Shown: positions 1,742-36,683 of the stretch, in pieces
Position numbering within the stretch: the stretch's first letter is position 1
Layout: each line of letters starts with the position of its first letter
NCBI GenBank assembly: GCA_037927135.1
Contig: JAXSPP010000004.1
Coordinates: forward strand, 1 to 64,000
Direction of reading: 5' to 3'
Origin: Candidatus Pampinifervens sinense
GTDB taxonomy: Bacteria > Aquificota > Aquificia > Aquificales > Aquificaceae
Length of the DNA stretch: 64,000 nucleotides
Position numbers and translations under genes: made by a program
Notes under the pieces: model-generated
Database searches by the model: none
Seen by the model: only the letters and a program-made list of their open reading frames with translations
What the model was told of the DNA's origin: nothing

Positions 1742-2157
1742 CATATATCAAAGATGATCTCTGCTATCCACTGATCTCCTTCCTTTTCTACCTTTAGACC
1801 ATGGTAGGTGGCAGCTTTTATGACAAGCCTAGGCTCATGTCTCTCTGGATCAAACTTACTGCCCACAAGCTTCACCTTTGCATAGCTTTCGCTCACCTCC
1901 AAAACTTGGCATGAAGAGGCTACAAAAAGCTCCTTTTCGTGCAGGAAGATTGCCCTGTTTATGATGTCTGGAAGGAGAAAGGGGAGCTCAGAGCTCACCT
2001 CTATTATCCTCTCCTCTTTTGCCTCTACAGCATCTATGGGTGTTATCTCGTTAAAGGTTGCCAGCAAGCTTTTGCATATTAGCTCACCAAGGCTTTCTGC
2101 CCTTACCCTTATGCCTGCATCTGCTGTAATGCGGTCTATAGTTTCATAAAAGCTCAT
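1741..2157 (-). CDS. Archease (SHS2-fold)
   Basis: N-terminal D-x-x-TADAGI and C-terminal IKAATYHGL...IIFDI motifs. Confidence 0.9.
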   Translation of the reverse strand: MSFYETIDRITADAGIRVRAESLGELICKSLLATFNEITPIDAVEAKEERIIEVSSELPFLLPDIINRAIFLHEKELFVASSCQVLEVSESYAKVKLVGSKFDPERHEPRLVIKAATYHGLKVEKEGDQWIAEIIFDI

Positions 2158-2948
2158 AGCCCGAGCACCTCAAACATGGTATAAAAGCCAGGTGGCTTGC
2201 CCTTTATCCACCTGCTAGCCTCTATGGCACCCCTTGCGAATATGTCCCTTGAGGTGGCCCTATGTATAAGTTCTAGCCTTTCACCAAAGCCAAAAAAGTA
2301 GACGGTGTGCTCTCCTACCACATCCCCACCCCTCAAGGCCATAACACCTATCTCTTTTGCTTCTCTTTCTGAGAGGCCATCCCTTCCATGAACCTTCTTT
2401 TCAAGGCCCATAACCTTACAGATTATCTCCTCAAGCTTTAGGGCTGTACCGCTGGGAGCATCCTTTTTAAAACGGTGATGTATCTCCATCACCTCCACAT
2501 CAAAACCCTTATCTTTTAGAACCCTTCCAGCTATCTCCACAAGCTTAAAAAGTAGGTTGACTCCAAGGCTCATGTTGGGAGAGAGGAGTATGGGTGCATA
2601 GGAAGAGTAGGATCTTATCTCTTCAATTTCCTGTTCGTTGAAGCCTGTAGTGCCTATGACCACACCTTTTCCTGCAAGGGCAGAAAGCTTGGCATGGGAG
2701 ACGGCGGCGGTAGGGTTTCCAGAGAACTCTATAACCACATCGCACAAAGGCAATGCCTCTTCAAGCCTTGAGGTGAGTGGAAGGCCCTTCAGCTCTTGAA
2801 TGCCAGAGGCTTCTCCAAGGTCCTGTGATCTTACACAATCGGGATGTTCTACGCCCGCAACCACTTGAAAGTCTGAGTATTCAAGGGAAAGCCTGAGGAT
2901 GCTCTTGCCCATCCTTCCGAGGGCACCACAAACTACAGCCTTTGTCAT
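2154..2948 (-). CDS. dapB: 4-hydroxy-tetrahydrodipicolinate reductase
   Basis: GALGRMG, VIGTTG, EIHHRFKKDAPSGTA and RGGDVVGEH motifs. Confidence 0.97.
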   Translation of the reverse strand: MTKAVVCGALGRMGKSILRLSLEYSDFQVVAGVEHPDCVRSQDLGEASGIQELKGLPLTSRLEEALPLCDVVIEFSGNPTAAVSHAKLSALAGKGVVIGTTGFNEQEIEEIRSYSSYAPILLSPNMSLGVNLLFKLVEIAGRVLKDKGFDVEVMEIHHRFKKDAPSGTALKLEEIICKVMGLEKKVHGRDGLSEREAKEIGVMALRGGDVVGEHTVYFFGFGERLELIHRATSRDIFARGAIEASRWIKGKPPGFYTMFEVLGL

Positions 2949-3196
2949 TCTTCTTCCTCTTCACCAAAGATCATATCCTCAAGCTCTTCAACGGCATCTT
3001 CAGCTTGGTCTGGTGGCACGACGGAAGGATAGAGGGCCACCTGAATCCCTTCTGTGAAGAGGAACTTACTTATTATCTCCTGAAGCTTTTCTAGCTCTTC
3101 CGGTGTTAGGTCTCCCCTTATGCTCTCTTCAATGGGCTTGTTGGTAAAGAAAAAACCTACTAAGCTGAAGGGAACAGCGTAAAGTTGCTCTTCCAT
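2945..3196 (-). CDS. Small acidic hypothetical protein
   Basis: 83-aa ORF with AGGAGAG SD; ATGA overlap with dapB. Confidence 0.75.
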   Translation of the reverse strand: MEEQLYAVPFSLVGFFFTNKPIEESIRGDLTPEELEKLQEIISKFLFTEGIQVALYPSVVPPDQAEDAVEELEDMIFGEEEEE

Positions 3197-3244
3197 GACA
3201 CTCTCCTTTCTAGAGTTTTGTAAATTATATAATATCCTTTAACT

Positions 3245-4147
3245 ATGAGGCTGGCAAGCATTGATGTAGGTTCTTATTCTATAAGGTTAAGCGTGGCAGA
3301 CCTAGACGGTGGCCTAAAGCTCATTCACGAAGAGGGCACCATAACAGCTTTGGCAACGGATCTAAAGGAAAGGGGTCTTCTCAGAGAGGACAGGATGGAA
3401 GAGAGCTTACAAGTTATAAAGAGCTTTGTTGAAAAAGCAAAGAGCTTGGGTGCAGGGCGCATAAAGATAGTGGGCACAGAGGCTCTAAGGAGGGCAAAAA
3501 ACTCTTCAGAGTTTATAGAAAGGTTAAAGGAGCTTACAGGCATTGAGCTAAGGGTCATAGCACCTGAAGAGGAAGGAAGGTATGCCTTTTTATCGGTAGC
3601 CTACTCCCTTAGGCCTCAAGGGAGGTTTTGCATAATAGACCAAGGTGGAGGATCCACAGAGTTCGTCTGCGGAAGGGGCTTTCAGGTGGAGTCTCTTAGG
3701 TCCTTACCCTTTGGTATAGTAAACCTCACAGAAGAGTTCATCCATAGCGATCCACCAAAGCCTTACGAGCTGGAATCCCTCAAAAACTTCCTTGACGAGC
3801 AGATAAAGGAAGTGGTAGAGCCTTGCGACCAGCTTGTGGGCCTTGGTGGAACTATAACCACCATCACAGCCATAGAGTATGGCATATACCCATATAAAGG
3901 TGAGGAGGTGCATGGAAAGGAACTAAGCTTGGACAAGATCATGTTTTGGCTTGAGACTTTGAGCTCTATGAGGGAAAAAGACAGAATTGCTAGCTTTCCA
4001 CACATAGAGCCAAAGAGGGCAAGGGTGATAATTCCTGGGCTTTTGATCTTCTATAGGAGTATGATCCTTTTTGGAAAGGACAAAATAAAGGTAAGCGATT
4101 GGGGCCTAAAGGAAGGACTTTTGGTGGAGGAGGTTATAAAAAAGTAA
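3245..4147 (+). CDS. ppx: Ppx/GppA family phosphatase (short single-domain type)
   Basis: IDVGSYSIRL, TEALR, EEEG, DQGGGSTE and GLKEG ASKHA-family motifs. Confidence 0.92.
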   Translation: MRLASIDVGSYSIRLSVADLDGGLKLIHEEGTITALATDLKERGLLREDRMEESLQVIKSFVEKAKSLGAGRIKIVGTEALRRAKNSSEFIERLKELTGIELRVIAPEEEGRYAFLSVAYSLRPQGRFCIIDQGGGSTEFVCGRGFQVESLRSLPFGIVNLTEEFIHSDPPKPYELESLKNFLDEQIKEVVEPCDQLVGLGGTITTITAIEYGIYPYKGEEVHGKELSLDKIMFWLETLSSMREKDRIASFPHIEPKRARVIIPGLLIFYRSMILFGKDKIKVSDWGLKEGLLVEEVIKK

Positions 4148-4199
4148 AAAAAAGGGAGGAAAGGCGGGGGAGCAGGGGCTATATAGCTGGGCCAGCCCA

Positions 4200-5741
4200 T
4201 TAGAAGATCCACTGGAACTGCAAGGTGATGGCATCATTCTTTATTTTGACGTTTCCTTCATCAAGCTTTGTATACTCCAAGGTCCAACGGAAGTTTTCGT
4301 TGATATAGTAGTAGTTTATACCCACGCCTAGCTGTTTTATCTTGCCCAGGTAGCTTGTAGGGCTGTTGTTTTCACGTATAAAGTTTGTAGCATCTCCGTA
4401 GAACCTTGTAGCACTGCCACTTCCAACTTTAACTATCTGCGGTTTATACTCAGAGTAGCTTACATAAGGCTCAAACTTATGCTTGGACTGTGGATTTATC
4501 ATATATCCCGCCTTTACAAGCCAAAAGTCGTTCTTTATGCTCCTGTTGGGGTAGGTATTGTTAGCACTGTCGGTTAGAAGAAGGTTATCAAACTTTACTT
4601 GGCCCAATTCTGCCACAAAGGATATGGGCCCATGGTGCCAAGCAAAGTCTACGCCATAGAATTTCATATCAACCTTGTTGTCAAGGAGGACATTAGCTAG
4701 TGTTGTCAAAGGATTGGGTAGCAGTAAGTAGGGTATCCTCACATTAACAGTACCAGCCCCGTTCTCTGGTTGACCATTGTTACGAAAGCCTGGAGATATA
4801 CCTTGTGTATCGGTAATTATGTGCTGGTCTATATTGTTCTGAAAGGCATAAGAGACTCCAACTGTTACACCCTTTCTCTTGCCAAGATAGGTATCTCTGT
4901 AAAGCCAGTTGTATATGGCAGGCCTTCCCTCTGGGTCTCCAAAGCTAACAGTACCCCTAAGGGTTATAAGCGGGCTATTGGATGAGTTGCCTCTTGCCCG
5001 TGAAATACATTCAGCAGGAGAAATAGCACCACATGAAAGATTAGTTACCACAGTCTCATCCCATGGATTTCTAACGTTTTTGAAGCCACCAAACAAACCC
5101 AAAAAGCCATCCACGGTTATCTTAGAGTAGCCTTGTCCCCTGCCCGAAGCCCTTATATGCGCATACCCTCCGAAGGCTCTTCCTGTTACATCGCCTATGG
5201 TCAGGTGTGCCCACCTTAGAGTTGCGTTTGTCCTATCCAGGTCAATGTTGTCATAAGCCCTCTGGAATTGCTCTCTACCTAAAGGCACCCTTGGGTATCC
5301 AAGGTGTAGGTCAAGGGTTATACCCTTCATGTCGGTCATGGCGCTTGGCACAAGTATCACATCTAGCTCGTGTATAGTGCCCGTGTTTCTGTTGCTTTGC
5401 CTTTTGGCATGGGTTGGCTGTCCACCAAAAGGCGCATCGTAAGGATCTCTTCCAAAGTCGTTATCCCTCAAAACGAAGTTGAACTTAAACCAAGGGTTGA
5501 CACTTCCTCCAAACCTCAACCTCACCCTTCTGAAGAATACATCAGTCCTATCGCTTGCGTTTATAAAGTTTGGTCTGTTTTCACTGCTTATATCCTGCTG
5601 TCTAAACCATACTTGCATAAGAAGGTTTATGTCCATGTACTGTTCCTCTGATGCTCCAGAGAGTCTGATGGCATGAGAAAGATCTGGTGTAAATAAAACA
5701 GCGGTAAGCAAAAAGGCACCCACCACCTTTTTGTTTTTCAT
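4200..5741 (-). CDS. Outer-membrane beta-barrel porin (OprO/OprP-like anion-porin superfamily)
   Basis: Sec signal ending SHA; FRRVRLRFGG strand; GREQ...DLDR segment; alternating aromatic beta-strands; C-terminal LQFQWIF BAM signature; AGGAGG SD. Confidence 0.8.
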   Translation of the reverse strand: MKNKKVVGAFLLTAVLFTPDLSHAIRLSGASEEQYMDINLLMQVWFRQQDISSENRPNFINASDRTDVFFRRVRLRFGGSVNPWFKFNFVLRDNDFGRDPYDAPFGGQPTHAKRQSNRNTGTIHELDVILVPSAMTDMKGITLDLHLGYPRVPLGREQFQRAYDNIDLDRTNATLRWAHLTIGDVTGRAFGGYAHIRASGRGQGYSKITVDGFLGLFGGFKNVRNPWDETVVTNLSCGAISPAECISRARGNSSNSPLITLRGTVSFGDPEGRPAIYNWLYRDTYLGKRKGVTVGVSYAFQNNIDQHIITDTQGISPGFRNNGQPENGAGTVNVRIPYLLLPNPLTTLANVLLDNKVDMKFYGVDFAWHHGPISFVAELGQVKFDNLLLTDSANNTYPNRSIKNDFWLVKAGYMINPQSKHKFEPYVSYSEYKPQIVKVGSGSATRFYGDATNFIRENNSPTSYLGKIKQLGVGINYYYINENFRWTLEYTKLDEGNVKIKNDAITLQFQWIF

Positions 5742-5752
5742 AGTCCTACCTC

Positions 5753-6259
5753 CTATTGAACTTTTATGTAAGCAAAGCCTTGAGATTGTAAATGTCCTAT
5801 TACACCAACACCAGAAGGCACTATCTTTACAAACTCATGAAGCTTATTAGGATCAAGTCTAAGCCTCTGCAGTGTTATGTTGCATATGTAAAAATCAACA
5901 CCGTAGGCAAGAAGATCCTTTTCCATTTGATAAAGCTCGTTTATCTTTATTGGCTCAGTCTCCCAAGGACTACCAGATAGATCCTTCATGAAGAACTTTA
6001 CACCAGGACCGTGGGCAACAACCACTATCTTTATCCTGAGTGGATCATTATCGTAGACAGACAGATGATTCCTTATGTTTCCAAGCATAGCCTTAAACCT
6101 TGCCTCCTGTGGGAAATCACAGTGATAGACCACACCTATTTGTGCCTCCTTCTTTATGTCTTCCATCTTTACCTTAGGTGGTGCGGCATTTGCAAGCTTA
6201 TTTATAAAAGGCACAGAGGCCAGCAAAGTTACCCATTTGAAAAATCCTCTCCTGTCCAT
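5753..6259 (-). CDS. Tat-exported DsrE/DsrF-like (COG1416-type) protein
   Basis: Start reassigned to MDRRGFFK (twin-arginine signal, ANA cleavage site) behind a GGAGGT SD; VVYH, IVVVAHGPGV, ICNIT (conserved Cys), VPSGV and GFAYIK motifs. Confidence 0.85.
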   Translation of the reverse strand: MDRRGFFKWVTLLASVPFINKLANAAPPKVKMEDIKKEAQIGVVYHCDFPQEARFKAMLGNIRNHLSVYDNDPLRIKIVVVAHGPGVKFFMKDLSGSPWETEPIKINELYQMEKDLLAYGVDFYICNITLQRLRLDPNKLHEFVKIVPSGVGVIGHLQSQGFAYIKVQ

Positions 6260-6299
6260 GACCAATACCTCCTTTTTTCTTTCTCCTCTCCTTTTGAAA

Positions 6300-6316
6300 T
6301 GCAAAGAATATGCCAG
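6300..6316 (-). promoter_or_regulatory. Sigma-54 (-24/-12) promoter for the dsrE-like/porin operon
   Basis: Minus strand CTGGCATATTCTTTGCA: GG and GC exactly 10 nt apart, matching TGGCAC-N5-TTGCW; lies between a sigma-54 activator gene and the next operon. Confidence 0.85.
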
Positions 6317-6380
6317 AGGGCTACAGATTACATCTTTTAGACAAATCAAGGATTTCAAAAGGTATAGACTCTGCCACCTT

Positions 6381-6413
6381 TGCCACTTTGACCTTACTAT
6401 TGTCAAAATGGCA
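6381..6413. promoter_or_regulatory. Putative upstream activator sequences (two 13-bp pseudo-palindromic sites)
   Basis: TGCCACTTTGACC (6381-6393) and TGTCAAAATGGCA (6401-6413) are inverted copies (11/13 identical), 20 bp apart, about -92 to -124 from the predicted start site. Confidence 0.65.
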
Positions 6414-6415
6414 TA

Positions 6416-7719
6416 CTACATGAGGTTGTACCTTTTTAATTTTCTGTAGAAGGTCCTTAAAGGAATGTCCAGAAGCTCTGCAGCCTTCCTTTTGTTGAAG
6501 TTTGCTTTCTTTAGCGCCTCTTCAATCTTAGCCTTCTCTATCTCCTTAAGACTTTCAACCTTTCTACCAAGCTGTATACCCACATGATCTTCCTTGATCA
6601 ATGCTTCATTGCACAGTAGCACAGCCCTTTCTATCATGTTCTTTAGCTCCCTTACATTGCCCGGATAGTCATAGGAAAGAAGTAATCTTTTTACGCCCTC
6701 TGAGAACCCTTCTATCCTCTTGTTATACTTCCTTTTGAACCTCTCAAGAAAATGCTCCGCTAAAGGTAGTATATCCTCCTTCCTTTCTCTCAGTGGTGGA
6801 ACAACTATTTCAACAGTATTTAGCCTGTAGTATAAATCCTTTCTAAATAGCCCATCTTCTATGAGTTTTTGTATATCCCTGTTGGTTGCGGATATGATGC
6901 GCACATCGGCCTCTATCTCCTTCCTACCACCCACTCTATAAAACTTTTTCTCTTCTATAGCTCTCAGTAGCTTGGCCTGCAGGGCAAGATCAAGCTCTGT
7001 TATCTCATCTAAAAATAGAGTTCCACCTTTTGCAAGCTCCAAAAAGCCTTCTTTAGGTTGATTCGCTCCAGTGAAGGCCCCCTTTTCATATCCAAAAAGC
7101 TCTACCTCCAAAAGGTCCGTAGGTATGGCGGACACATTTATGGCTATAAAGGCCTTTTCCCTCCTGTCACTAAGTTTATGTATAAGCTTGGCCACAAGCT
7201 CCTTTCCAACTCCACTTTCACCTTGAATGAGAACATTACAATCGCTACAGGCTATCTTTTCAACTGTCTCAATTACCTTTTTCATAGCTGGGCTTACCAC
7301 AACCATCTCCTCTTCCATCAACCTTTTTTCCTGCTTTAAAAGCCTGTTTTCCCTCTTAAGGCTTAGCATGCTGTCAATCTTTTTGACAACTAGCTCAACC
7401 TCTTCCAAGCTACAGGGCTTGGTCAAAAAATCAAAGGCTCCAAGCTTCATAGCTTCAACGGCCGTCTTTATGGTTCCATGACCTGTTATTACAACGACCT
7501 CCTGGTTAGTGTTAGTCTCTTTTATTCTTTTTAATAGCTCCATACCGTTCATATCTGGCAAAAAAGGTCAAGCAGTATAATGTCATAGTGCTGTCTTTCT
7601 AAGTGTTCTATGGCGCTTTTCCCGCTTGCTACATGCTCTGTTAAGTAGCCCTTTTCCCTCAAAAACTTTGCCAAAAGCCACCCATACTCAACCTCATCCT
7701 CAACTATCAGTATTTTCAT
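6416..7719 (-). pseudogene. Sigma-54-dependent response regulator (REC-AAA+-HTH, NtrC1-like), frameshifted at 7560-7565
   Basis: MKILIVEDE...IILLDLF (from 7719) continues as LPDMNG...ITGHG...FLTKP in another frame; GESGVGKE, GAFTGA, LFLDEI, GNVRELKN and a Fis-type HTH are intact; one extra T restores a single ORF; may be a sequencing error. Confidence 0.85.
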
Positions 7720-9622
7720 AGCTCCCTTCTCCTTTTTTAATATATACACGGACCTCACAACCTTTATCTAAATTCTCATACTCTATCTTTCCTCCCATCT
7801 CCTCCACAAATCTCTTTGCAATAGATAAACCTAAACCAAAACCATCTTCCTTTGATGTATAAAAGGGGGAAAAGACCTCTTCAGAGGGTATTCCCGGACC
7901 CTCATCCCTTACCTTCCACACGAAGAAAGAATCCACCTCTTCTATGTTTATACAAACCCTACCCTGCATAGGTGAGGCATCTATGGCGTTGTCTATGATG
8001 TTTATAAGTATCTGTTCAAGCTTCCAAGGATAGGTAAAAATTCTCTTGTTATTCACGCTTGCACTCAGCTCTATGACCACACCTTTTTTCCTAGCCTTAA
8101 AGCTGATTATATCCAAAAGATCCTTGGTGAAGTTAAAGGGATCTATCTCTTCTGGTGAACCATCACAATTTTTAGCTATATATAACAACCTTTTTACAGT
8201 ATTTTTTACCCTTTCAACGTTCTTTAATACCACATCTGCCATATCTTTAATCTCCTTTTCATTAACAGTATTCCTTATGTATTCCGTATACCCCATAATG
8301 GAGGCCAATGGATTGTTCAGTTGATGTGCCAAAGAACAAGCTATTTCACCTACAACAGCCAGCCTTGAATATCTATTTATAAGGAACTCAAGGTTCTTCT
8401 TGTCTGTAATATCCTTTATATGAAAAAGGGTATAGCTTTTCTCTTCCATATCAATGGGTATGGATATTATAGAAGCATACCTGCTTTTACCTTTTATCTC
8501 TAAAAGACTTTCTGGGATAAAGGTGAAAGATCCGAGTGTTAGCTGTGGGCTTACTTCCTTTATACTCAAGCCCACAATGTCTTCAAACCTTATACCAAAC
8601 ATATCTAAAAACTTACTATTTACCATCTCTATGATACCCTTCTCATTCTCTACCAAAAGCAGGGCATCTCCGAGGTTGTTAAAAAGGTTCATATAAACCC
8701 TCTTTTCCTTTTCAAGGCTTTCAAGCAAATTTTGAAAGGCCTTTGCCAATATATAAACCTCACCATAGCCCCTTACTTCAATATTTTTCTTCTCAGCCCA
8801 ATTAATAACAGATAGCTTTAGATCTTCAAGGGGTTTAAATATCCTCCTTACTGTGAAAAAGCCAATTAGAAAAAGCCCTCCACATAAAATCAAGCTTAAA
8901 GAAAGGGACAGTTTTAAAAAGTCATAAGCATTTTTATAAACTTGATCTTCAGCTTCACTAATTTCAACACTCATACCTGTTCCTTTAACATCCGCTCTTA
9001 TGCTAAGCAATTTTCCACCAGTCTCTTGGTTCATAACTAGAAAAGGAAAGCCTTTAGAGTCTAAAAGGCTTATGTTAGCATTTTGAATTCCATAGGCACT
9101 TACATACTTCTTAAGGATATCCTTTAGATTTAAAGAACAGACTATAAAGCCTAAAGGTACGTTATCGCTCATATCAAAGACCTTTAAGTTAAGATAGCTT
9201 TCTCCCTCCGCATTCAAATGGACGCCAAGAACTTCATCCTCCCAGTTTAACCTGTCTATGCTTTTAGGAATGCTATTTACATTGGGAAGCCTTGCTTCCT
9301 GAAAGATGATCTCCCCCTTTGTATTGTAATAAGCACAGGCCACTATATGTTCTGTATCCCCTGTTATCCTCCATAATATCTCTCTTAAATCAATACCAAG
9401 GCTTCTATACCTTGCCACAAGGGACCTTATCCTTGATTGTGTTAGGCTAATCTCCTCATTTAGTCTATCGGAAAGAATCTTTAAGATAATAGTTTTATCC
9501 CTTTCCCAAGATGTCTTCAGTTGGCTTTTTAGCAATTGAAAATAGGCAAAAACAAAGAGAAACTGGGCAAATACAAGGAGAAATATAACCATTATTATAC
9601 TTTTCTTTATACTACGCCTCAT
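7700..9622 (-). CDS. Sensor histidine kinase (two TM segments, periplasmic sensor, PAS-like domain, HisKA, HATPase)
   Basis: H-box LAHQLNNPL, N-box QILINIIDNAIDA, DEGPGI, FSPFYTSK and GFGLGL motifs. Confidence 0.92.
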   Translation of the reverse strand: MRRSIKKSIIMVIFLLVFAQFLFVFAYFQLLKSQLKTSWERDKTIILKILSDRLNEEISLTQSRIRSLVARYRSLGIDLREILWRITGDTEHIVACAYYNTKGEIIFQEARLPNVNSIPKSIDRLNWEDEVLGVHLNAEGESYLNLKVFDMSDNVPLGFIVCSLNLKDILKKYVSAYGIQNANISLLDSKGFPFLVMNQETGGKLLSIRADVKGTGMSVEISEAEDQVYKNAYDFLKLSLSLSLILCGGLFLIGFFTVRRIFKPLEDLKLSVINWAEKKNIEVRGYGEVYILAKAFQNLLESLEKEKRVYMNLFNNLGDALLLVENEKGIIEMVNSKFLDMFGIRFEDIVGLSIKEVSPQLTLGSFTFIPESLLEIKGKSRYASIISIPIDMEEKSYTLFHIKDITDKKNLEFLINRYSRLAVVGEIACSLAHQLNNPLASIMGYTEYIRNTVNEKEIKDMADVVLKNVERVKNTVKRLLYIAKNCDGSPEEIDPFNFTKDLLDIISFKARKKGVVIELSASVNNKRIFTYPWKLEQILINIIDNAIDASPMQGRVCINIEEVDSFFVWKVRDEGPGIPSEEVFSPFYTSKEDGFGLGLSIAKRFVEEMGGKIEYENLDKGCEVRVYIKKGEGSYENTDS

Positions 9623-10581
9623 CTTACCACTTGATCTACAAGGGCTAGCTTATTTTTGTCCAATGCGTATCCAAGCTCCCTTAGAGCGCTTTCGTTAACA
9701 AAGAGTTTAATCCTACTAACCTTCTCAAAGGGTATATTCTCAACCTTCTCACCTTTTATTATCCTGTAAGCAATGTAAGAAGCCTGGTAGCCCTGATCGT
9801 AATTGGAGCTACCATAGGCTATGGTGCAACCTTTGTTAGCATGTTCAGGAGCTAGACAGAGTACGGGCACTTGATAGAAGCGGGCATAATGCAGTATATA
9901 ACTTGTAAGGAAGTTTTCGGTATAGAAGCATGGAGTCATTATGATGGCTCCAAAACCATCTTCTTTCATGTGGCTTATCACATACTCAAGGTCTTTCACG
10001 TCATTGACCGCCACAGGTACAACCTTCAAACCATACTTTTCCCCTGCCCTTATGGTCAATCTTGTGGCAAGCTTTGAAGCTTCAAAACGAGGTGTACAAA
10101 AAACAATAGCCTTCTTTATGTCTGGGAAGAACCTTTTGAACAGCTCTATGCGCTTCTCCATTAGCTCGGTATTGAGGTTATCAATACCCGTTATGCCTCT
10201 TATTGGCCTGTTCTTTTCGTCTATGAAACCCCAAGTTTTTATAGCTGTCCCGCCCATTATAACTATAGGAACCTTCCAATCCTCCTTGACTTTTTTAAGA
10301 TAGTAGGCTTCTAAGCTACCGCCAGCCAGTATCAAATGGAACTTATCTTCATCCTCTGCCATCTTTATAGCCTTTTCTTCAACGCCTTTAAGACTATTTT
10401 CACCGTTATAGACCAAGAATTTCACCTCCTTTATCCCTAAGCTTTTAAGACCATCTTTAAAGCCTTCTAACTTTGCCAACCTTCCCTCTCCAGATATAAG
10501 CACTCCTATAACCAGTTTTCCATCCCTTCCTCCGCATGATACAAGAAGAAGCAGTGCTAAGAAAGCTAGCAAAGGCCTCAT
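9619..10581 (-). CDS. Lipoprotein, ABC-type substrate-binding protein family (no transporter genes adjacent)
   Basis: Lipobox LLVSC; ITGI, YG..YDQGYQA..IAYRIIKGEKVENIP and LFVN...A..LG pattern typical of the ABC_sub_bind family; ATGA overlap with the kinase. Confidence 0.8.
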   Translation of the reverse strand: MRPLLAFLALLLLVSCGGRDGKLVIGVLISGEGRLAKLEGFKDGLKSLGIKEVKFLVYNGENSLKGVEEKAIKMAEDEDKFHLILAGGSLEAYYLKKVKEDWKVPIVIMGGTAIKTWGFIDEKNRPIRGITGIDNLNTELMEKRIELFKRFFPDIKKAIVFCTPRFEASKLATRLTIRAGEKYGLKVVPVAVNDVKDLEYVISHMKEDGFGAIIMTPCFYTENFLTSYILHYARFYQVPVLCLAPEHANKGCTIAYGSSNYDQGYQASYIAYRIIKGEKVENIPFEKVSRIKLFVNESALRELGYALDKNKLALVDQVVR

Positions 10582-10627
10582 GGTTAATAATATATGACCC
10601 TTATTAACTTGGGTTATTATAGTTCTT

Positions 10628-11209
10628 ATGGATAACTTGCTCTTAGTAGTCTTTGCCTACCTCTACGGTTCTGTGCTCTTTGGCGAGCATATTGCCAGGT
10701 ATAAGGGTGTGGACATAAGGTCTGTGGGAAGTGGAAATGTGGGTGCTACCAATGTGGGAAGGGCCCTTGGCAAAAAGTATGCCCTTTTGGTATTCCTTTT
10801 GGACCTCTCAAAAGGCCTTATCCCTATGCTTTTGGCAAGGCTATACTATGGTCTTGATAGCTGGACTGCCTTCTCTGTAGGCCTTGCAAGCCTCTTGGGG
10901 CATATGTATCCTATCTTTCATGGTTTTAAAGGTGGCAAGGGTGTGGCCACAGGCTTTGGCGTTCTCCTTGGCATATCTCCCTTAGTAGCCATCCTTTCCA
11001 TAGCCCTCTGGGGCCTTGTATTCAAATGGAAGGGTATAGTTTCCATAGCTTCCTTGAGTGCTTCCGCCTTTGCCATAGTGCTTTTATTGCTTTCCTATCC
11101 CTTCAAAATCTTCCTTATGGCCCTTATTATGTTCCTTCTTATCCTTTACAGACACAAAGAAAACATCTATAGGCTTATGGAGGGCAAAGAGTACAAGTTT
11201 AAAACATGA
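10628..11209 (+). CDS. plsY: Glycerol-3-phosphate acyltransferase
   Basis: DIRSVGSGNVGATN, LDLSKG, GHMYP, FKGGKGVAT and RHKENI motifs. Confidence 0.96.
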   Translation: MDNLLLVVFAYLYGSVLFGEHIARYKGVDIRSVGSGNVGATNVGRALGKKYALLVFLLDLSKGLIPMLLARLYYGLDSWTAFSVGLASLLGHMYPIFHGFKGGKGVATGFGVLLGISPLVAILSIALWGLVFKWKGIVSIASLSASAFAIVLLLLSYPFKIFLMALIMFLLILYRHKENIYRLMEGKEYKFKT

Positions 11210-12624
11210 TATATGTGCTTCTTTTTAACCTTTTTCTGCTGACCTTTAGAATCCTTTATGTGCTTTTTTATCCCCTTGACCTAACGCCAGAGGAGGCCCA
11301 ATACTGGGACTGGTCAAGAAGGCTGGACCTTAGCTACTATTCCAAGCCACCTATGGTGGCTTACTTGAACTTTTTTACAAGACAACTCCTTGGAGTCTCC
11401 GAGCTTGCGGTAAGGATCACACCCATTTTGCTTTCCTTTCTTCTCTCCATCCTAACATACCTTTTTGTAAAAAAAATCTTTGACAAGAGAACGGCACTTA
11501 TCGCCTCCACCCTTCCCCAGCTTACCATAGGCTTTGCCATAAACTCCCTTCTTATGACAACGGACGCACCCTTTGTTTTCTTCTGGTCCCTCTCTGTTAT
11601 GGTTCTATTCTTTGCCTTTGAAAAAAACTCCCTTTCCCTTTGGCTTTTGGTAGGCCTTTTGGCAGGCCTTGCCTTTTTAAGCAAATATCCAGCGGTGTTC
11701 TTACTTCTTTGCGCCCTGTTGTATGGCCTTATATACAAAAGGGATGTGCTTAAAAGTCCAAAGCCTTATGTTAGCCTAATACCTGCCATACTTTTGAGCC
11801 TTCCTGTCCTATACTGGAATTACAAACATAACTTTGTATCCTTCAAACATGTCTCCACCCTTGCCAGCAAGTCAGCAAGCCTTTTAAACATAGACAGTTT
11901 TCTTGAGTTTCTTGGCGGGCAAGCCCTTCTTCTCTCTCTTATCCCTTTCCTTTTACTTCCTTACCTTTGGCTAAAGGGGCTAAAGGATTCTAAAAGGGCC
12001 TTTTTTGTTTCCTTTTCCTTACCCATTTTCCTATTTTTTATGGTCCTTTCTATTTTTAAAAAGGTGGAGGCCAACTGGCCAGGCTTTGGCTACTTTGGAG
12101 CCTTTATACTTGTCAGCCTCTTTCTTTCAAGAAGTTTTTTACTTATTCCTACCTACCTTTTTAGCCTACTTCTTTTTATCCTTTTACACTTTACTCCACT
12201 TCTTGACCATATGGGCCTTGGAAGGCTTTTGCCACCGCAGAGGGACCCCACAAAGATAGGTATTGGGTGGTCGGAGCTTGGCAAGGTAGTAAGCCAGATA
12301 AGAAAAGGAGAGGAAAAGGTCATAAGCCCCCATTATCAGATAAGTGCAGAACTTGCCTTTTATGTGAAAGGAAATCCAAAAACGTATTGTATAAACCTTG
12401 GAAGGAGGATGAACCAATATGACCTGTGGGAGAAGGATTACCAAGGCGATGCCATCTTTGTAGACTATGAGCCCATAAACCCAAAGGTGCTGTCCGCCAG
12501 TGATGGTATAATGGAAAAGGTAGAACTTCCTATATATTGGAGAGGAGAGGAAGTAAGAAGGTTTTACATATATAGATTGAAAAATTTGAAGAAAGTGGAG
12601 GAAGAAATGCCTGGGAGTTATTAG
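11206..12624 (+). CDS. GT39/ArnT-like membrane glycosyltransferase
   Basis: EEAQYWDWSR, YYSKPPM, TTDAP and LSKY motifs; polytopic membrane protein. Confidence 0.85.
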   Translation: MIYVLLFNLFLLTFRILYVLFYPLDLTPEEAQYWDWSRRLDLSYYSKPPMVAYLNFFTRQLLGVSELAVRITPILLSFLLSILTYLFVKKIFDKRTALIASTLPQLTIGFAINSLLMTTDAPFVFFWSLSVMVLFFAFEKNSLSLWLLVGLLAGLAFLSKYPAVFLLLCALLYGLIYKRDVLKSPKPYVSLIPAILLSLPVLYWNYKHNFVSFKHVSTLASKSASLLNIDSFLEFLGGQALLLSLIPFLLLPYLWLKGLKDSKRAFFVSFSLPIFLFFMVLSIFKKVEANWPGFGYFGAFILVSLFLSRSFLLIPTYLFSLLLFILLHFTPLLDHMGLGRLLPPQRDPTKIGIGWSELGKVVSQIRKGEEKVISPHYQISAELAFYVKGNPKTYCINLGRRMNQYDLWEKDYQGDAIFVDYEPINPKVLSASDGIMEKVELPIYWRGEEVRRFYIYRLKNLKKVEEEMPGSY

Positions 12625-12646
12625 GTTTTTTGTAAGCCTTTATCTT

Positions 12647-13420
12647 GTGGGTTTTTTACTCTATTACTCTCTGCCTTTTACCTTTGTAAGATACATAAAC
12701 TACTCCATACCAAACCCTGCACCCACGCCTACCCAAAAGGAGTGTGCCTATGTGATAAACCCAAAAACTGTTTATAACAGCCCTTTGGGCAACCCCAGAA
12801 AACTTGAGAAAATACTAAAGGATAAGAGCCTTTATGTTTATGAAAGCAAGGAATATGTAAAAGGATATAAGGACCTTGGGCCTCTAAAGTGGCTTGCCTA
12901 TATGTCCTTTGAATACATACCAAAGACTTTGGTCTTTGAAAAGCCAAAAGACCCGTACACGCTCATGGACCAAAGGGCTTGCACACCCATTGCCTCCGAC
13001 ATGCCCATTGTCCTTTCCCTTTGGAACATAGACTTTCCAAGCTACTCCTTTATACTGGGAGATAGGAAAAACCTTTTGTATGAAGACTCTTGTCAAGAGC
13101 CAAAAGGGTCCGCCTTTGTGCCTTATGTGGGCAACGGTAAGGTGAGGGCTTATGTCTATTCCAATAGAGGCTTTGCTTTTCCTGGTGAGAGCTTTAAAAC
13201 TCCCGCCGTGCTTTCGGTGGATTTCTTTGAGAAAAGGGCCTTAGTCTTTTTACTAAAGGATGGGAAGGTCTATAAGGTTTACAACCAGAGGTCCATAAGG
13301 GAAAGTTTAACAGAAAAGGGCCTTTATCAAGTTTACGCCTACACTTATCATTACAACCTCTGGAGCTTTTACTTTGGTTTGAGGTTTCTCTTCTGCACTC
13401 CCGCCTTTCAGGCTATGTAA
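12647..13420 (+). CDS. Hypothetical protein (start uncertain)
   Basis: 257-aa ORF filling the gap between the glycosyltransferase and recG; the frame is open from 12590 with a hydrophobic N-terminus. Confidence 0.65.
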   Translation: MGFLLYYSLPFTFVRYINYSIPNPAPTPTQKECAYVINPKTVYNSPLGNPRKLEKILKDKSLYVYESKEYVKGYKDLGPLKWLAYMSFEYIPKTLVFEKPKDPYTLMDQRACTPIASDMPIVLSLWNIDFPSYSFILGDRKNLLYEDSCQEPKGSAFVPYVGNGKVRAYVYSNRGFAFPGESFKTPAVLSVDFFEKRALVFLLKDGKVYKVYNQRSIRESLTEKGLYQVYAYTYHYNLWSFYFGLRFLFCTPAFQAM

Positions 13421-33293: not shown

Positions 33294-34478
33294 CTAGCCT
33301 TTTAGTCTAAAGTAAAGAGATCCTCCCATAGCTATGTTATAAAGAAAGAACAAGGAAGAAAGAAAGTGTACAAAAGAGGAAGCAATAAAGCCAACCTTTT
33401 TACCTGTAATAAAAGACAAGATTACACATGCTACCCATAAGGCATGCAGATAAAAGCTAAGCTTTATCCTTCCGTAAGGAATTACTTCAGACATTAGAGG
33501 CACTCTCTTTGAGGGCATGTTGCTAAGATGGAACCAAACAAGGAAAGGTGTTATCCTATACATCATACCCATTATGATGCTTGAGAAGAAGACAAGGAAA
33601 GAAAAAAGGAAGGGGACAAATAGTTTATTTGTAAAAGGATATAGCAAAAGGGAGACCATTAAAAAGGTTTGAGATATGTACCAAAAGAGAATGACAGGTT
33701 CGGCTCTCTTCCTTCTTTTTATGAGCCTCTTTATGGTCATGTAAGAGTAAGCTAGAAAGAGTAGAAGGAGGGGTATTGAGAGGAGGTTATCAAGGGTAGC
33801 TAAAAGAAGACTTATGGAGATTGCTGTGGGGAATATCCTTGAGAAGTTTTTGTTGTAAGGTTCTGTTATAAAGAACATCTCCACCACCTGAAAGGAGACA
33901 CTTGCTACAAGAAGGCCTATCCACCCAAAGAGGAGGATGGTAAGGTGCGCATGTATGGCCTTGTTCCAAAAGGGTACAAGGTCAAAATAGGAAAGCACTT
34001 GGTAAAACCCAATGGTGGCACCTACCATGAGAAGGATCAAAGCGTATCTAAAACCTAAAGGTGTAGGTGTATAGGCCTTTATTCTAAATAGGTGCCACAG
34101 CATAAGGAGAGAGGTATAAGTTATAGCTATATAGACAAGGAAAGATCCGGGCAAAAGAAGGCCTTTTTTAAAAAAGCCAAGGATAAAGAGGGTGGAGCCT
34201 GTTAGTAGAAGAGAGTAGGAGAGGAAGGCCTTTGGCTTTGGATCTTTTATCACAGCGCCTGCCACCACAGGCAACATCTGGAAGAGGGTACCAAACATGG
34301 TAAATAGACCAAAGCCTAGGGTGTAGAGGTGAACCAAAGGAGGTAGGATTAAAAAACCTTTTATAGATAAGTACAGCTCAAAGAGGGAAGCTATTAAGCT
34401 AAAGGTGCAGGCGGTTATAAAGAAGCTAAAGACTATAACAAATGGTGGAGCTTGAAGTAGGGAGAGTCCTTGGCTCAT
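33294..34478 (-). CDS. Polytopic membrane protein with intramembrane histidines, function unknown
   Basis: About 12 TM segments; HLYTLG, FQMLPV, HAHL..FGW, FQVVEMF and YRITPFLVWFH motifs; ATGA overlap with the hemerythrin gene. Confidence 0.8.
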   Translation of the reverse strand: MSQGLSLLQAPPFVIVFSFFITACTFSLIASLFELYLSIKGFLILPPLVHLYTLGFGLFTMFGTLFQMLPVVAGAVIKDPKPKAFLSYSLLLTGSTLFILGFFKKGLLLPGSFLVYIAITYTSLLMLWHLFRIKAYTPTPLGFRYALILLMVGATIGFYQVLSYFDLVPFWNKAIHAHLTILLFGWIGLLVASVSFQVVEMFFITEPYNKNFSRIFPTAISISLLLATLDNLLSIPLLLLFLAYSYMTIKRLIKRRKRAEPVILFWYISQTFLMVSLLLYPFTNKLFVPFLFSFLVFFSSIIMGMMYRITPFLVWFHLSNMPSKRVPLMSEVIPYGRIKLSFYLHALWVACVILSFITGKKVGFIASSFVHFLSSLFFLYNIAMGGSLYFRLKG

Positions 34479-35807: not shown

Positions 35808-36683
35808 TCATTCTCCTTTTGCCTCTTTTAGGGCCTGCTTTATATCCTGATCGGCCTTTCTAAAAATCTCTGCATTCTCTTTGCTAAGGTGCTTCCCATA
35901 AACCTTTAAGAGAAAAGGTATGTTTATATAGCCTGTGGCTACCTTACCCTCCTTCTCGTAAAGGTATACCCTGCATGGGGCCAGCGTTCCAAACTGGGGT
36001 ATGTCCTTCAGTATGGCTTCTCCGTAGGTAAGGTTGCATGCCAGGAAGATGGATAGCTTTGGGCTCTCTTGTCTTATGTCCATTATGTCAAGGATGTTCA
36101 TATTTACACCGTCCAGCGCCGTCTTATAAAGTGTTTTAAAGGTTTCAAAGTCCATATTTTCTATAACTTCCTCATATACTAAGTTTTCCTTTATATGTGG
36201 AGCCTGTGGAACCTTTGGCCTATTTGTGCTTACCTTTGTCAAAGCGATGTGTAGCCTTTTATACACATCTCTTATTGCTTTCTTCTCCGAGGGATCTAAA
36301 GCCTTTTCGTACTTTGAGAGGAATACCTTATGGTTTATAACCGTTGCCCTTATCTTGCCTTTATCCTCATAAACGGCCACACTACATGGTGCTATGTTTG
36401 TAAGGGCTGGAGCCTTTATCAACACACTGTCCATACCGTCAAACCTGCAGCCAAAGATGACATAGTAATTCCTGAAAGCTTTGTTTCCTCTTGCCCTTAT
36501 GGCATCGGATATGGTGAGTGTTCTCATCACCTTTAGCCCTTGTTCTTCCATACTCTTTTTTACAGCTTCCACACCAGCCTTAAAGTCCTTTTCTTTCAAG
36601 TTGTAGGTAATATACATTATCCGCAGAGGGTCCATTGCAAAAACAAAAAGGGGAAGGAAGAAAAGGAGAAAAGCCTTTAACAT
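35808..36683 (-). CDS. Periplasmic protein with tandem DUF302 domains, last gene of the sox operon
   Basis: Sec signal; two repeats, each with a C...APC(S/R)V.(V/L)YE motif. Confidence 0.75.
   Translation of the reverse strand: MLKAFLLFFLPLFVFAMDPLRIMYITYNLKEKDFKAGVEAVKKSMEEQGLKVMRTLTISDAIRARGNKAFRNYYVIFGCRFDGMDSVLIKAPALTNIAPCSVAVYEDKGKIRATVINHKVFLSKYEKALDPSEKKAIRDVYKRLHIALTKVSTNRPKVPQAPHIKENLVYEEVIENMDFETFKTLYKTALDGVNMNILDIMDIRQESPKLSIFLACNLTYGEAILKDIPQFGTLAPCRVYLYEKEGKVATGYINIPFLLKVYGKHLSKENAEIFRKADQDIKQALKEAKGE

Follow-up and report, generated by a model that had tools for sequence, protein, structure and literature searches.

The 64,000-nucleotide (nt) stretch of the Candidatus Pampinifervens sinense genome analysed here (contig JAXSPP010000004.1, positions 1 to 64,000; hereafter, the window) carries a five-gene module at positions 4,200 to 10,581 that encodes, in this order, a lipoprotein solute-binding protein, a sensor histidine kinase, a sigma-54 activator, an exported DsrE-fold protein and an outer-membrane porin. 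The five genes follow one another head to tail, all on the minus strand, and the module is a real unit, conserved across relatives. Its activator is the orthologue of the structurally well-studied NtrC1 of Aquifex aeolicus; in the window, the activator gene is split by a single-nucleotide deletion. In other lineages, both output families are associated with sox genes, and we give a role of the module in periplasmic sulfur handling an even chance. A sequence-only reading of this DNA had described five co-directional genes, a 156-bp gap with enhancer-like palindromes and a -24/-12 promoter, and a twin-arginine (Tat) DsrE gene with a porin gene 11 bp on; its coordinates and spacings agree with our open reading frames (ORFs) and Pfam domains, and all of these elements are present. 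The features, with lengths in amino acids (aa), are as follows.

9619..10581, minus strand: orphan lipoprotein solute-binding protein, PF04392 (E = 5.3e-76), 320 aa, proposed co-sensor of the kinase.
7700..9622, minus strand: sensor histidine kinase, 640 aa, with a first transmembrane segment, a periplasmic domain of ~205 aa, a second transmembrane segment, a linker, and PAS, HisKA and HATPase domains.
7549..7719, minus strand: N-terminal fragment of the activator, Response_reg positions 1-50 of 111, with the LLD acceptor region and a premature TGA.
7560..7565, minus strand: T6 run, the site of the 1-nt deletion (one gap column in the alignment).
6416..7561, minus strand: C-terminal fragment of the activator, with the second half of the receiver (REC) domain, the sigma-54 AAA+ domain, the lid and a Fis-type helix-turn-helix (HTH), as assigned by Pfam.
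6381..6413, minus strand: candidate upstream activator sequence, two 13-bp sites TGNCA-N3-TGNCA with centres 20 bp apart.
6300..6315, minus strand: predicted sigma-54 -24/-12 promoter, TGGCAT-N5-TTGCA, starting 56 nt before the DsrE ATG.
5753..6259, minus strand: DsrE-fold protein with a Tat signal, MTH1491 / COG1416 / former DUF1791 subfamily, 168 aa, PF02635 (48.4 bits).
4200..5741, minus strand: outer-membrane porin, long form of an OprO/P-like, ExtI-related superfamily, 513 aa, with a signal peptide and the C-terminal sequence ...QWIF.

The sensing genes are tightly packed: the binding-protein stop and the kinase start overlap by 4 nt, and the kinase gene runs 20 nt past the activator ATG at 7719. 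The 156-bp gap at 6415..6260 separates the activator from the DsrE gene, and the porin gene starts 11 bp downstream of the latter. The module is flanked by a convergent ppx/gppA gene (3245-4147, plus strand) and a divergent plsY gene (10628-11209, plus strand). Scans of positions 3900-10900 for sigma-70 promoters and terminators gave no excess over shuffled sequences. The Sox system that the sequence-only reading had placed about 25 kb away is a cluster at 35.8-41.3 kb, 25 kb from the module, that encodes a protein with two DUF302 domains, SoxB, a cytochrome c, SoxA, SoxZ, SoxY and a thioredoxin.

To place the module in its lineage, we surveyed 121 sampled Aquificales genomes, with 62 in the family of the window genome and 8 and 50 in two other families. 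The porin family occurs in 30 of the 121 genomes (25/62 in the own family, 0/8 and 4/50 in the other two); within the genus, 6 of the 18 genomes besides the window genome carry it, or 7 of 19 when that genome is counted. Each of the 27 loci with a strong match to the porin has a DsrE gene directly upstream of the porin gene. Longer stretches were examined for 24 of 26 relatives, the contigs of the other two ending too early, and the complete order of binding protein, kinase, activator, DsrE and porin was found in 15 of them (16/25 with the window). Among cultured strains, Thermocrinis albus DSM 14484, Hydrogenobacter thermophilus and Hydrogenivirga caldilitoris are examples in which the module is intact. 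Five of the nine unlinked loci belong to a single genus (g5), and all five g5 genomes carry the binding-protein and kinase genes elsewhere. In the two g5 genomes that we followed further, an activator gene lies near those genes, among housekeeping genes, with no other obvious target. The synteny survey that had been proposed as a check on the module, made here across Aquificales, finds it conserved as a unit, with the sensing genes linked to the output genes at 16 of 25 loci.

The regulatory region between the activator and DsrE genes is conserved as well. The sequence TGGCATATTCTTTGCA at 6315..6300 (minus strand), 56 nt ahead of the DsrE ATG, fits the sigma-54 consensus (TGGCAC-N5-TTGCW, with GG and GC 10 nt apart) and is a predicted promoter of the two output genes. 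Of 24 orthologous upstream regions, 18 have a strict form of the motif (TGGCAY-N5-TTGCW) at a distance of 39-59 nt from the DsrE start, and the other 6 have near-matches. Farther upstream, TGCCATTTTGACA-N7-GGTCAAAGTGGCA at 6413..6381 (minus strand) forms a candidate enhancer, the second site of which has one mismatch (GGTCA). At least one copy of TGNCA-N3-TGNCA occurs in 23 of the 24 upstream regions and at least two in 18 of them, the second copy usually 19-21 bp after the first. The window genome (1.55 Mb) has 42 single sites of this form, counting both strands; the paired pattern occurs once, at the module. Conservation across 24 loci and the single occurrence of the pair suggest that the promoter and enhancer motifs are more than chance. 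The g5 loci, with their sensing genes elsewhere, retain the promoter and enhancer sites upstream of DsrE. The genome also carries rpoN, tatC and six sigma-54 activators, and the presence of rpoN and tatC, with an enhancer pair confined to the module, bears out the earlier view of a self-contained circuit.

Two further observations concern these elements. Genome-wide, there are 17 strict sigma-54 promoter matches (for example, at C1:192434 (+), C8:20742 (-) and C5:124304 (+)); two of them closely precede ORFs that have twin-arginine leaders, and another precedes a PII-like ORF. In genome G010, an inserted 496-aa opposite-strand ORF (L138:3226-4716, +) separates the activator stop from the enhancer sites, and the promoter and enhancer are retained downstream of it. 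A weak match of this ORF to a Cas12f1-like TNB domain (E = 8e-4), short of the cut-off, hints at a TnpB-type element.

The best match of the activator among solved structures is 4l4u (E = 1e-147), followed by 1ny5 (E = 9e-136) and, at a distance, NtrC4 (3dzd; E = 6e-88). By these similarities it is the orthologue of A. aeolicus NtrC1 (PDB 1NY5, 1NY6 and 4L4U), an identity that the sequence-only reading had missed. The two share the architecture of REC domain, AAA+ domain with GAFTGA and Fis-type HTH; the difference is that the receiver domain of the window orthologue is split by a frameshift. At another locus (L160, genome G067), the activator encoded in this module aligns with 4l4u over 439 residues at 933 bits and, being near-identical, is taken to be NtrC1 itself. 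The porin gene of that locus (L160:9699-11067) is in two pieces, matching query residues 38-250 and 252-495, because of a frameshift or else a fault in the assembly. Control of NtrC1 is negative: the receiver domain keeps the ATPase as an inactive dimer until phosphorylation frees it, and removal of the N-terminal domain turns regulators of this type constitutive (PMC4878744, PMC10084136). Because the NtrC1 DNA-binding domain is described as setting four protomers in tandem on enhancers (PMC3841738), the two sites upstream of the DsrE gene fit as two dimer sites. Our literature search, which left Lee 2003 and Vidangos 2013 and 2014 (the likeliest sources) outside its scope, found nothing that names NtrC1 targets or ties NtrC1 to a DsrE or porin gene.

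The sequence-only reading had treated the activator as a single REC-AAA+-HTH gene, but a 1-nt deletion in the receiver domain splits it into two frames. The first ORF (7719..7549) encodes 56 aa, covers REC positions 1-50 and ends in ...LLDLFCQI before the stop; the rest follows in another frame (7561..6416), with REC positions 52-107, Sigma54_activat, the AAA lid and HTH_8. Every domain and motif is present in the window, although REC, AAA+ and Fis-type HTH are not joined in one polypeptide. An alignment with three relatives locates the missing base in the T6 run at 7565..7560, where the relatives read CTG/CTT-TTT-TTA (LFL); the deletion falls just past the region of the acceptor Asp. In G010, the closest relative, the activator is intact in one frame (...LLDLFLPDMNG...), and it is intact in 15 of 15 linked relatives, at 434-443 aa. 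The frameshifted version is found without gaps in contigs of two sequencing runs from two studies, X1 (depth 201) and X3 (depth 23), which have limited independence because both were flagged as possible sources of this DNA.

With the receiver domain broken, normal phospho-control would be lost in the window genome, and the reading frames indicate that signal control of the module is impaired there. Because the receiver domain holds NtrC1 off, three outcomes are possible. An in-frame ATG of the C-terminal fragment (7552..7550) overlaps the upstream TGA as ATGA (7552..7549), and re-initiation at this overlap would yield an activator that lacks the receiver domain and is possibly constitutive. 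If tRNA-Phe slipped by -1 on the T6 run, the ancestral LFLPD could be restored, with a little full-length activator as the result. If neither re-initiation nor slippage occurs, the DsrE–porin operon would be silent. Two metatranscriptome runs (X8 and X9), sampled to about 3%, gave 0 reads on positions 2000-12700, too small a sample to bear on transcription, and none of the datasets listed as containing the stretch is recorded as RNA. We also considered programmed frameshifting as a designed feature and rejected it, because the relatives lack the T run and are in frame; the T6 run forms no canonical X XXY YYZ heptamer in the zero frame, and only P-site slippage or transcriptional slippage would work from it. 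That the circuit of the window genome is a decaying relic, with a dead activator and a silent operon, strikes us as somewhat short of an even bet. Such decay would agree with the position of the deletion right after the acceptor Asp region, its recovery in contigs of two runs, the loss of module genes in further lineages and the general requirement of sigma-54 promoters for an activator. It sits less well with the integrity of all remaining module genes in the window and with a C-terminal fragment that keeps GAFTGA and Walker A/B; the ATGA overlap, the constitutive activity of NtrC1-type activators that lack the N-terminal domain and the slip that would bring back LFLPD also count against it.

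The first output gene encodes a member of the DsrE family (PF02635, 48.4 bits against a cut-off of 22.7). Among proteins of known structure, MTH1491 (1l1s) is the closest to it, matched at E = 1.2e-9 by sequence and at E = 5.5e-17 with the family profile. The predicted structure (predicted local distance difference test (pLDDT) score of 88.7) has the DsrE alpha/beta fold, with a template-modelling (TM) score of 0.91 to 1l1s as the target in a Foldseek search. Further matches of the model are 2pd2, 2qs7, 3pnx, 1jx7, 3mc3 and 2hy5, with 2d1p further down; the proteins that follow MTH1491 include ST0148, other DsrE-like proteins, YchN, DsrEFH and TusBCD. Cys126, part of a C-N-I-T sequence where a strand meets a helix, does not vary among 71 sequences and aligns with the corresponding Cys of MTH1491 and ST0148. 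The module protein therefore resembles DsrEFH, TusBCD, DsrE3 and MTH1491 in fold, and MTH1491 and ST0148 also in this conserved Cys. Cys126 may carry a persulfide or thiosulfonate and might hand it over to SoxYZ.

What sets this protein apart is its predicted location. The leader (MDRRGFFK...ANA/A, where the slash marks the cleavage site; in full, MDRRGFFKWVTLLASVPFINKLANA/A) has a twin-arginine motif, a hydrophobic region and an AxA site, twin arginines occur in 23 of 23 porin-linked DsrE orthologues and tatC is in the genome, so that the protein is a predicted Tat substrate. To our knowledge, the characterised DsrE-family sulfur carriers, such as DsrEFH, TusBCD and DsrE3, are cytoplasmic. 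A second, solitary paralogue of the Tat type, 162 aa in length, was found in G000 (C2:93231-93476; L190:4202-4690, minus strand), between a glycogen-branching-like gene and trpF. In a quick tree, solitary DsrE copies of this kind from the genus of the window genome branch within the porin-linked clade and so point to a recent duplication.

The structural model of the second output protein, the porin, matches OprO and OprP of Pseudomonas aeruginosa best (4rjx, 4rjw and 2o4v; E = 1e-14, TM scores of 0.61-0.62 to the target). The modelled fold therefore favours the OprO/P-like barrel of the sequence-only reading, although the Pfam score of the porin falls below the gathering cut-off of the family. 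OprO/P-like barrels are anion channels, and ~20 Arg/Lys positions are invariant or nearly so in the porin family; like OprO and OprP, the module porin has many conserved basic residues, and it may be anion-selective. It differs from OprO and OprP in being ~90-100 aa longer. A profile search of 1.84 billion representatives retrieved 262 relatives, of which only three clusters have the long form (~510-527 aa) and the rest are ~400-450 aa. Named porins of Sulfurihydrogenibium and Persephonella are the nearest short relatives, whereas pattern scans with the porin, as a single sequence or as an alignment, returned Aquificaceae only. Among 52 porin relatives scanned against NCBIfam, ExtI is the sole match for 31, below the cut-off; a true ExtI (317.6 bits to the ExtI model) was retrieved by the porin profile at E = 3.7e-10, which supports distant homology.

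On the sensing side, the binding protein has a lipobox (LLVSC) with a Cys that is invariant across 14 orthologues, and its gene is the sole PF04392 gene of the genome. No ABC (ATP-binding cassette) permease or ATPase gene lies near it, and the genome's only BPD_transp_2 permease pair comes with its own Peripla_BP_6 binding protein and two ATPases; the earlier statement that the binding protein lacks a transporter thus holds beyond its immediate surroundings. This orphan binding protein is inherited together with the kinase: their genes remain side by side in 15 of 15 linked loci and in 5 of 5 unlinked ones. Its clade is restricted to Aquificota wherever the organism is named, and the next relative has 26% identity. 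Four cysteines (C162, C218, C242 and C252) are invariant in the 14 orthologues and absent from the solved structures 6hni, 3lkv and 3lft, and could form disulfides or a thiol-based sensing site. One of the four sits in the invariant stretch T-P-C-F-Y-T-E-N-F.

The kinase has transmembrane segments at residues ~8-30 and ~238-258 and Pfam matches to PAS_9, HisKA and HATPase_c. Language-model features score its periplasmic part as dCache_1-like (0.96), which we treat as a lead only. Orphan binding proteins are known to serve kinases as co-sensors in LuxP-LuxQ and TorT-TorS, and the module has the same arrangement of an orphan periplasmic binding protein gene beside a gene for a kinase with a PAS/Cache-like periplasmic domain; its binding protein belongs to a different family, PF04392. 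By analogy, the binding protein may act with the kinase as a co-sensor.

The evidence for a role in sulfur metabolism comes from where the relatives of the two output proteins are found. A scan with the DsrE alignment returned at least 599 matched stretches, at least 559 of which encode a relative; the best 80 were kept. Among these 80, the 65 loci L037-L101 (63 of them from other phyla, mostly Alphaproteobacteria) have SoxX in the flank in 52 cases, SoxA in 51, SoxY in 49, SoxB in 48 and SoxZ in 47, and the DsrE gene often lies ~90 bp after soxX or ~2.5 kb after soxB. The 13 loci without Sox genes include two from Aquificaceae and several others that are short contigs. The alphaproteobacterial proteins (for example, Snov_0966 / Orf1 of Starkeya novella) belong to the same DUF1791 subfamily as the module DsrE, with 40-50% identity and the same invariant residues, and carry a Tat or Sec signal; unlike the module gene, theirs lie inside sox clusters, without a porin and without an NtrC1-type circuit, and form a separate clade. 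In Starkeya novella, Snov_0966 is reported to be encoded in the sox locus and detected in proteomes, with a putative role as a membrane anchor of the Sox complex (PMC3797975).

The porin superfamily shows a similar association in a sister family (f3). Of the 50 genomes of that family, 41 carry a ~420-aa porin from this superfamily, compared with 0 of 62 in the own family. A comparison of coordinates shows that 32 of the 35 f3 genomes with SoxB have this porin gene on the soxB strand and at most 1 kb downstream of soxB. One such locus (L162:6825-15874, genome G036) has the order DsrE-like protein, PF12974 binding protein, kinase, cytochrome c, thioredoxin, SoxY, SoxZ, SoxA, SoxB, DUF302 protein and porin. 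The sox cluster there is thus flanked by a second kind of binding-protein/kinase pair (phosphonate-binding type PF12974 with HisKA/HATPase), and the DsrE-like gene product has 29% identity. Kinases for tetrathionate and thiosulfate are known to have sensor domains of the PF12974 type.

Two characterised systems resemble parts of the module. In Acidithiobacillus caldus, the sigma-54 two-component system TspS/TspR controls the sox-II cluster (PMC6335251); like the module, it combines a periplasm-sensing kinase with a sigma-54 activator and a palindromic upstream site, and it switches on genes for periplasmic sulfur oxidation. TspS/TspR differs in that it sits directly upstream of soxXYZA-hyp-soxB, is described without a separate binding protein and has the site TGTCCCAAATGGGACA (PMC6335251). 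In the module, the site is TGNCA-N3-TGNCA twice, an orphan lipoprotein binding protein is included and the target is DsrE and porin genes rather than sox. In Geobacter sulfurreducens, reduction of selenite and tellurite requires the channel ExtI, whose gene neighbours that of the rhodanese lipoprotein ExtH (PMC6148476), and the ext cluster is stated to encode a polysulfide reductase essential for sulfur respiration, the route of polysulfide across the outer membrane being described in the same 2026 paper as unknown (PMC13510729). The likeness to ExtH-ExtI lies in a same-superfamily channel paired with an extracytoplasmic, Cys-based protein of sulfur-transferase type in a chalcogen-linked cluster. 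In contrast, the module porin is ~100 aa longer, its partner has a DsrE fold rather than that of a rhodanese, and the module has no cytochromes. The ext-type clusters are described as having mostly a LysR-family regulator upstream on the opposite strand, with a TetR-family regulator or none in a few (PMC6148476), whereas the module has an NtrC1-type activator.

The link to sulfur is one of genomic context only, drawn from two independent families. It lends weight to the proposal of the sequence-only reading that the system is related to sulfur, through the sox neighbourhoods of the DsrE subfamily (52/65) and the position of the porin superfamily after soxB (32/35), whereas a binding protein that senses sulfur does not find support. 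That reading had also named occurrence mainly in non-sulfur oxidisers as grounds for doubt; this proved wrong, as SoxB is present in 27 of 27 module genomes. The correlation with sox genes that it had proposed as a check has no discriminating power, because 57 of the 62 family genomes have SoxB anyway.

We propose the following mechanism. A ligand-bound binding protein would switch the Cache-like membrane kinase, which would phosphorylate the NtrC1 orthologue; the activator would then assemble on the two tandem 13-bp sites and open the -24/-12 promoter. The sole output would be the two-gene operon for a Tat-exported, Cys-bearing DsrE-fold protein and an arginine-rich, OprO/P-like and ExtI-related channel. 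Most likely, the porin would admit an anionic sulfur species (thiosulfate, polysulfide or polythionate) to the periplasm, where the DsrE-like protein may bind or carry sulfur and so feed or service a Sox system that lacks SoxCD. A bolder version joins several claims: that the NtrC1 regulon is an unrecognised outer-membrane and periplasmic branch of sulfur oxidation, with an anion porin and the first periplasmic DsrE-family carrier to work with SoxYZ, that the same carrier family serves alphaproteobacterial sox clusters, and that the PF04392 cysteines sense sulfane sulfur. We offer this combination tentatively and doubt that all of its parts will hold together.

Several results weigh against the proposed role in periplasmic sulfur handling. 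Besides the high base rate of SoxB in the family, all 19 genomes of the genus have SoxB and 12 of them lack a porin match, so that the DsrE–porin pair seems dispensable for Sox function and is at most accessory. The module lies 25 kb from the sox cluster, has its own promoter and is not co-transcribed with it, and no strict sigma-54 motif was found at the sox cluster of the window; in this genome, the DsrE and porin genes are neither in the sox cluster nor evidently co-regulated with it. The MTH1491 subfamily has no assigned function. Because the DsrE proteins of Aquificota and the Sox-linked ones of Alphaproteobacteria form separate clades in a quick tree, their functions may have diverged. 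Module genes also decay repeatedly: the porin gene has a stop in G007, is truncated in G016, split in G067 and reduced to remnants in G033; G007 also has a shortened binding protein, and the window a broken activator. The porin itself is modelled with moderate confidence (pLDDT 74) and scores 19.2 bits to PF07396, under the gathering cut-off of 20.9, whereas shorter relatives exceed it (57.6 bits for L164 and 32.6 bits for L162); its similarity to ExtI (NF040900; 44.3 bits against a cut-off of 150) spans residues 260-304 only, so that it is not assigned to the ExtI equivalog. Finally, the ligands of the three solved PF04392 proteins are L-Trp, L-Tyr and L-Phe (Table 1 of PMC10443332).

These aromatic ligands raise the strongest competing explanation, in which neither signal nor function involves sulfur: the circuit would respond to an aromatic amino acid or other organic ligand, with the porin as a nutrient channel and another periplasmic role, redox or unknown, for the MTH1491-like protein. 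The nearest NCBIfam model to the binding protein is TrpX (72 bits against a cut-off of 390), and the best full-length match of the kinase is AtoS (176 bits against a cut-off of 646), which responds to acetoacetate; the lack of an assigned function for MTH1491 would leave room for such a role. The binding protein is, however, very distant from the solved PF04392 proteins, with at most 26% identity to anything outside its Aquificota clade and four invariant cysteines that those proteins lack, and both output families recur inside sox clusters. We therefore regard a non-sulfur system as unlikely. If the module does handle chalcogens, it might still serve oxyanions rather than energy-yielding sulfur oxidation, with the porin taking up selenite or tellurite (or sulfite) and the Cys protein binding or detoxifying them, as proposed for ExtI and ExtH in Geobacter. 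ExtI is the only NCBIfam match of the porin (44 bits) as well as the sole match for 31 of 52 superfamily members, a true ExtI is within reach of the porin profile (E = 3.7e-10), and the title of a 2019 paper cited in PMC13510729 names selenite uptake by ExtI. That similarity is nevertheless distant and below the cut-off, the module contains no cytochrome, rhodanese or selenoprotein gene, nearer relatives of both output proteins lie in sox clusters, and polysulfide reduction has now been linked to the ext cluster (PMC13510729), all of which leads us to consider oxyanion handling quite improbable.

Least probable of all, in our judgement, is a phosphate system, in which an OprO/OprP-type porin, encoded next to the exopolyphosphatase gene ppx and induced under phosphate limitation, would conduct phosphate or pyrophosphate. 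The idea draws on the structural matches to OprO and OprP (E = 1e-14), the weak PF07396 match and the convergent ppx/gppA neighbour in the window and many relatives; but a convergent ppx is not co-transcribed with the porin, and ten loci (in genera g4, g7 and g9 and family f3) with an intact DsrE gene have no ppx match. Nor does a DsrE-fold Cys protein have a known place in phosphate uptake, control is by sigma-54 and NtrC1 rather than a Pho-type regulator, and the nearest relatives of the porin follow soxB. Periplasmic sulfur handling, at even odds, remains our preferred explanation.

The component kinds are already known: sigma-54 two-component control of sulfur genes (TspSR), a porin with a sulfur-transferase-type protein (ExtHI), co-sensors (LuxPQ and TorTS) and DsrE carriers. 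Our literature search found no description of the whole composition, of an exported MTH1491-type DsrE protein as a regulated output, of the long porin form or of a PF04392 co-sensor, nor an identification of a DsrE–porin operon as the likely NtrC1 regulon. PMC13500833, PMC13609358 and the main text of the Hydrogenobacter RSW1 paper contain nothing about these genes. If the proposed role is true, the exported MTH1491/DUF1791 branch of the DsrE family, represented by at least 559 matched stretches in a species-level genome collection, would gain a function and a testable context. The role would also bear on an open question about oxidisers with a truncated Sox system, namely how sulfur species get through the outer membrane and what becomes of them in the periplasm. 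For A. aeolicus NtrC1, a structural model for two decades whose structures underpin the negative-control model of sigma-54 activators, the module supplies a candidate regulon, enhancer sequence and sensory input. The natural frameshift past the acceptor Asp is a ready-made test of whether a receiver-less NtrC1 orthologue is constitutive in vivo.

Elsewhere in the window, two ORFs (33294-34478, minus strand, 394 aa; and 12647-13420, plus strand, 257 aa) have zero Pfam matches at the thresholds applied. The final gene of the window sox cluster (35808-36683, minus strand) encodes the protein with two DUF302 domains, and in family f3 a single-DUF302 gene lies between soxB and the porin gene.

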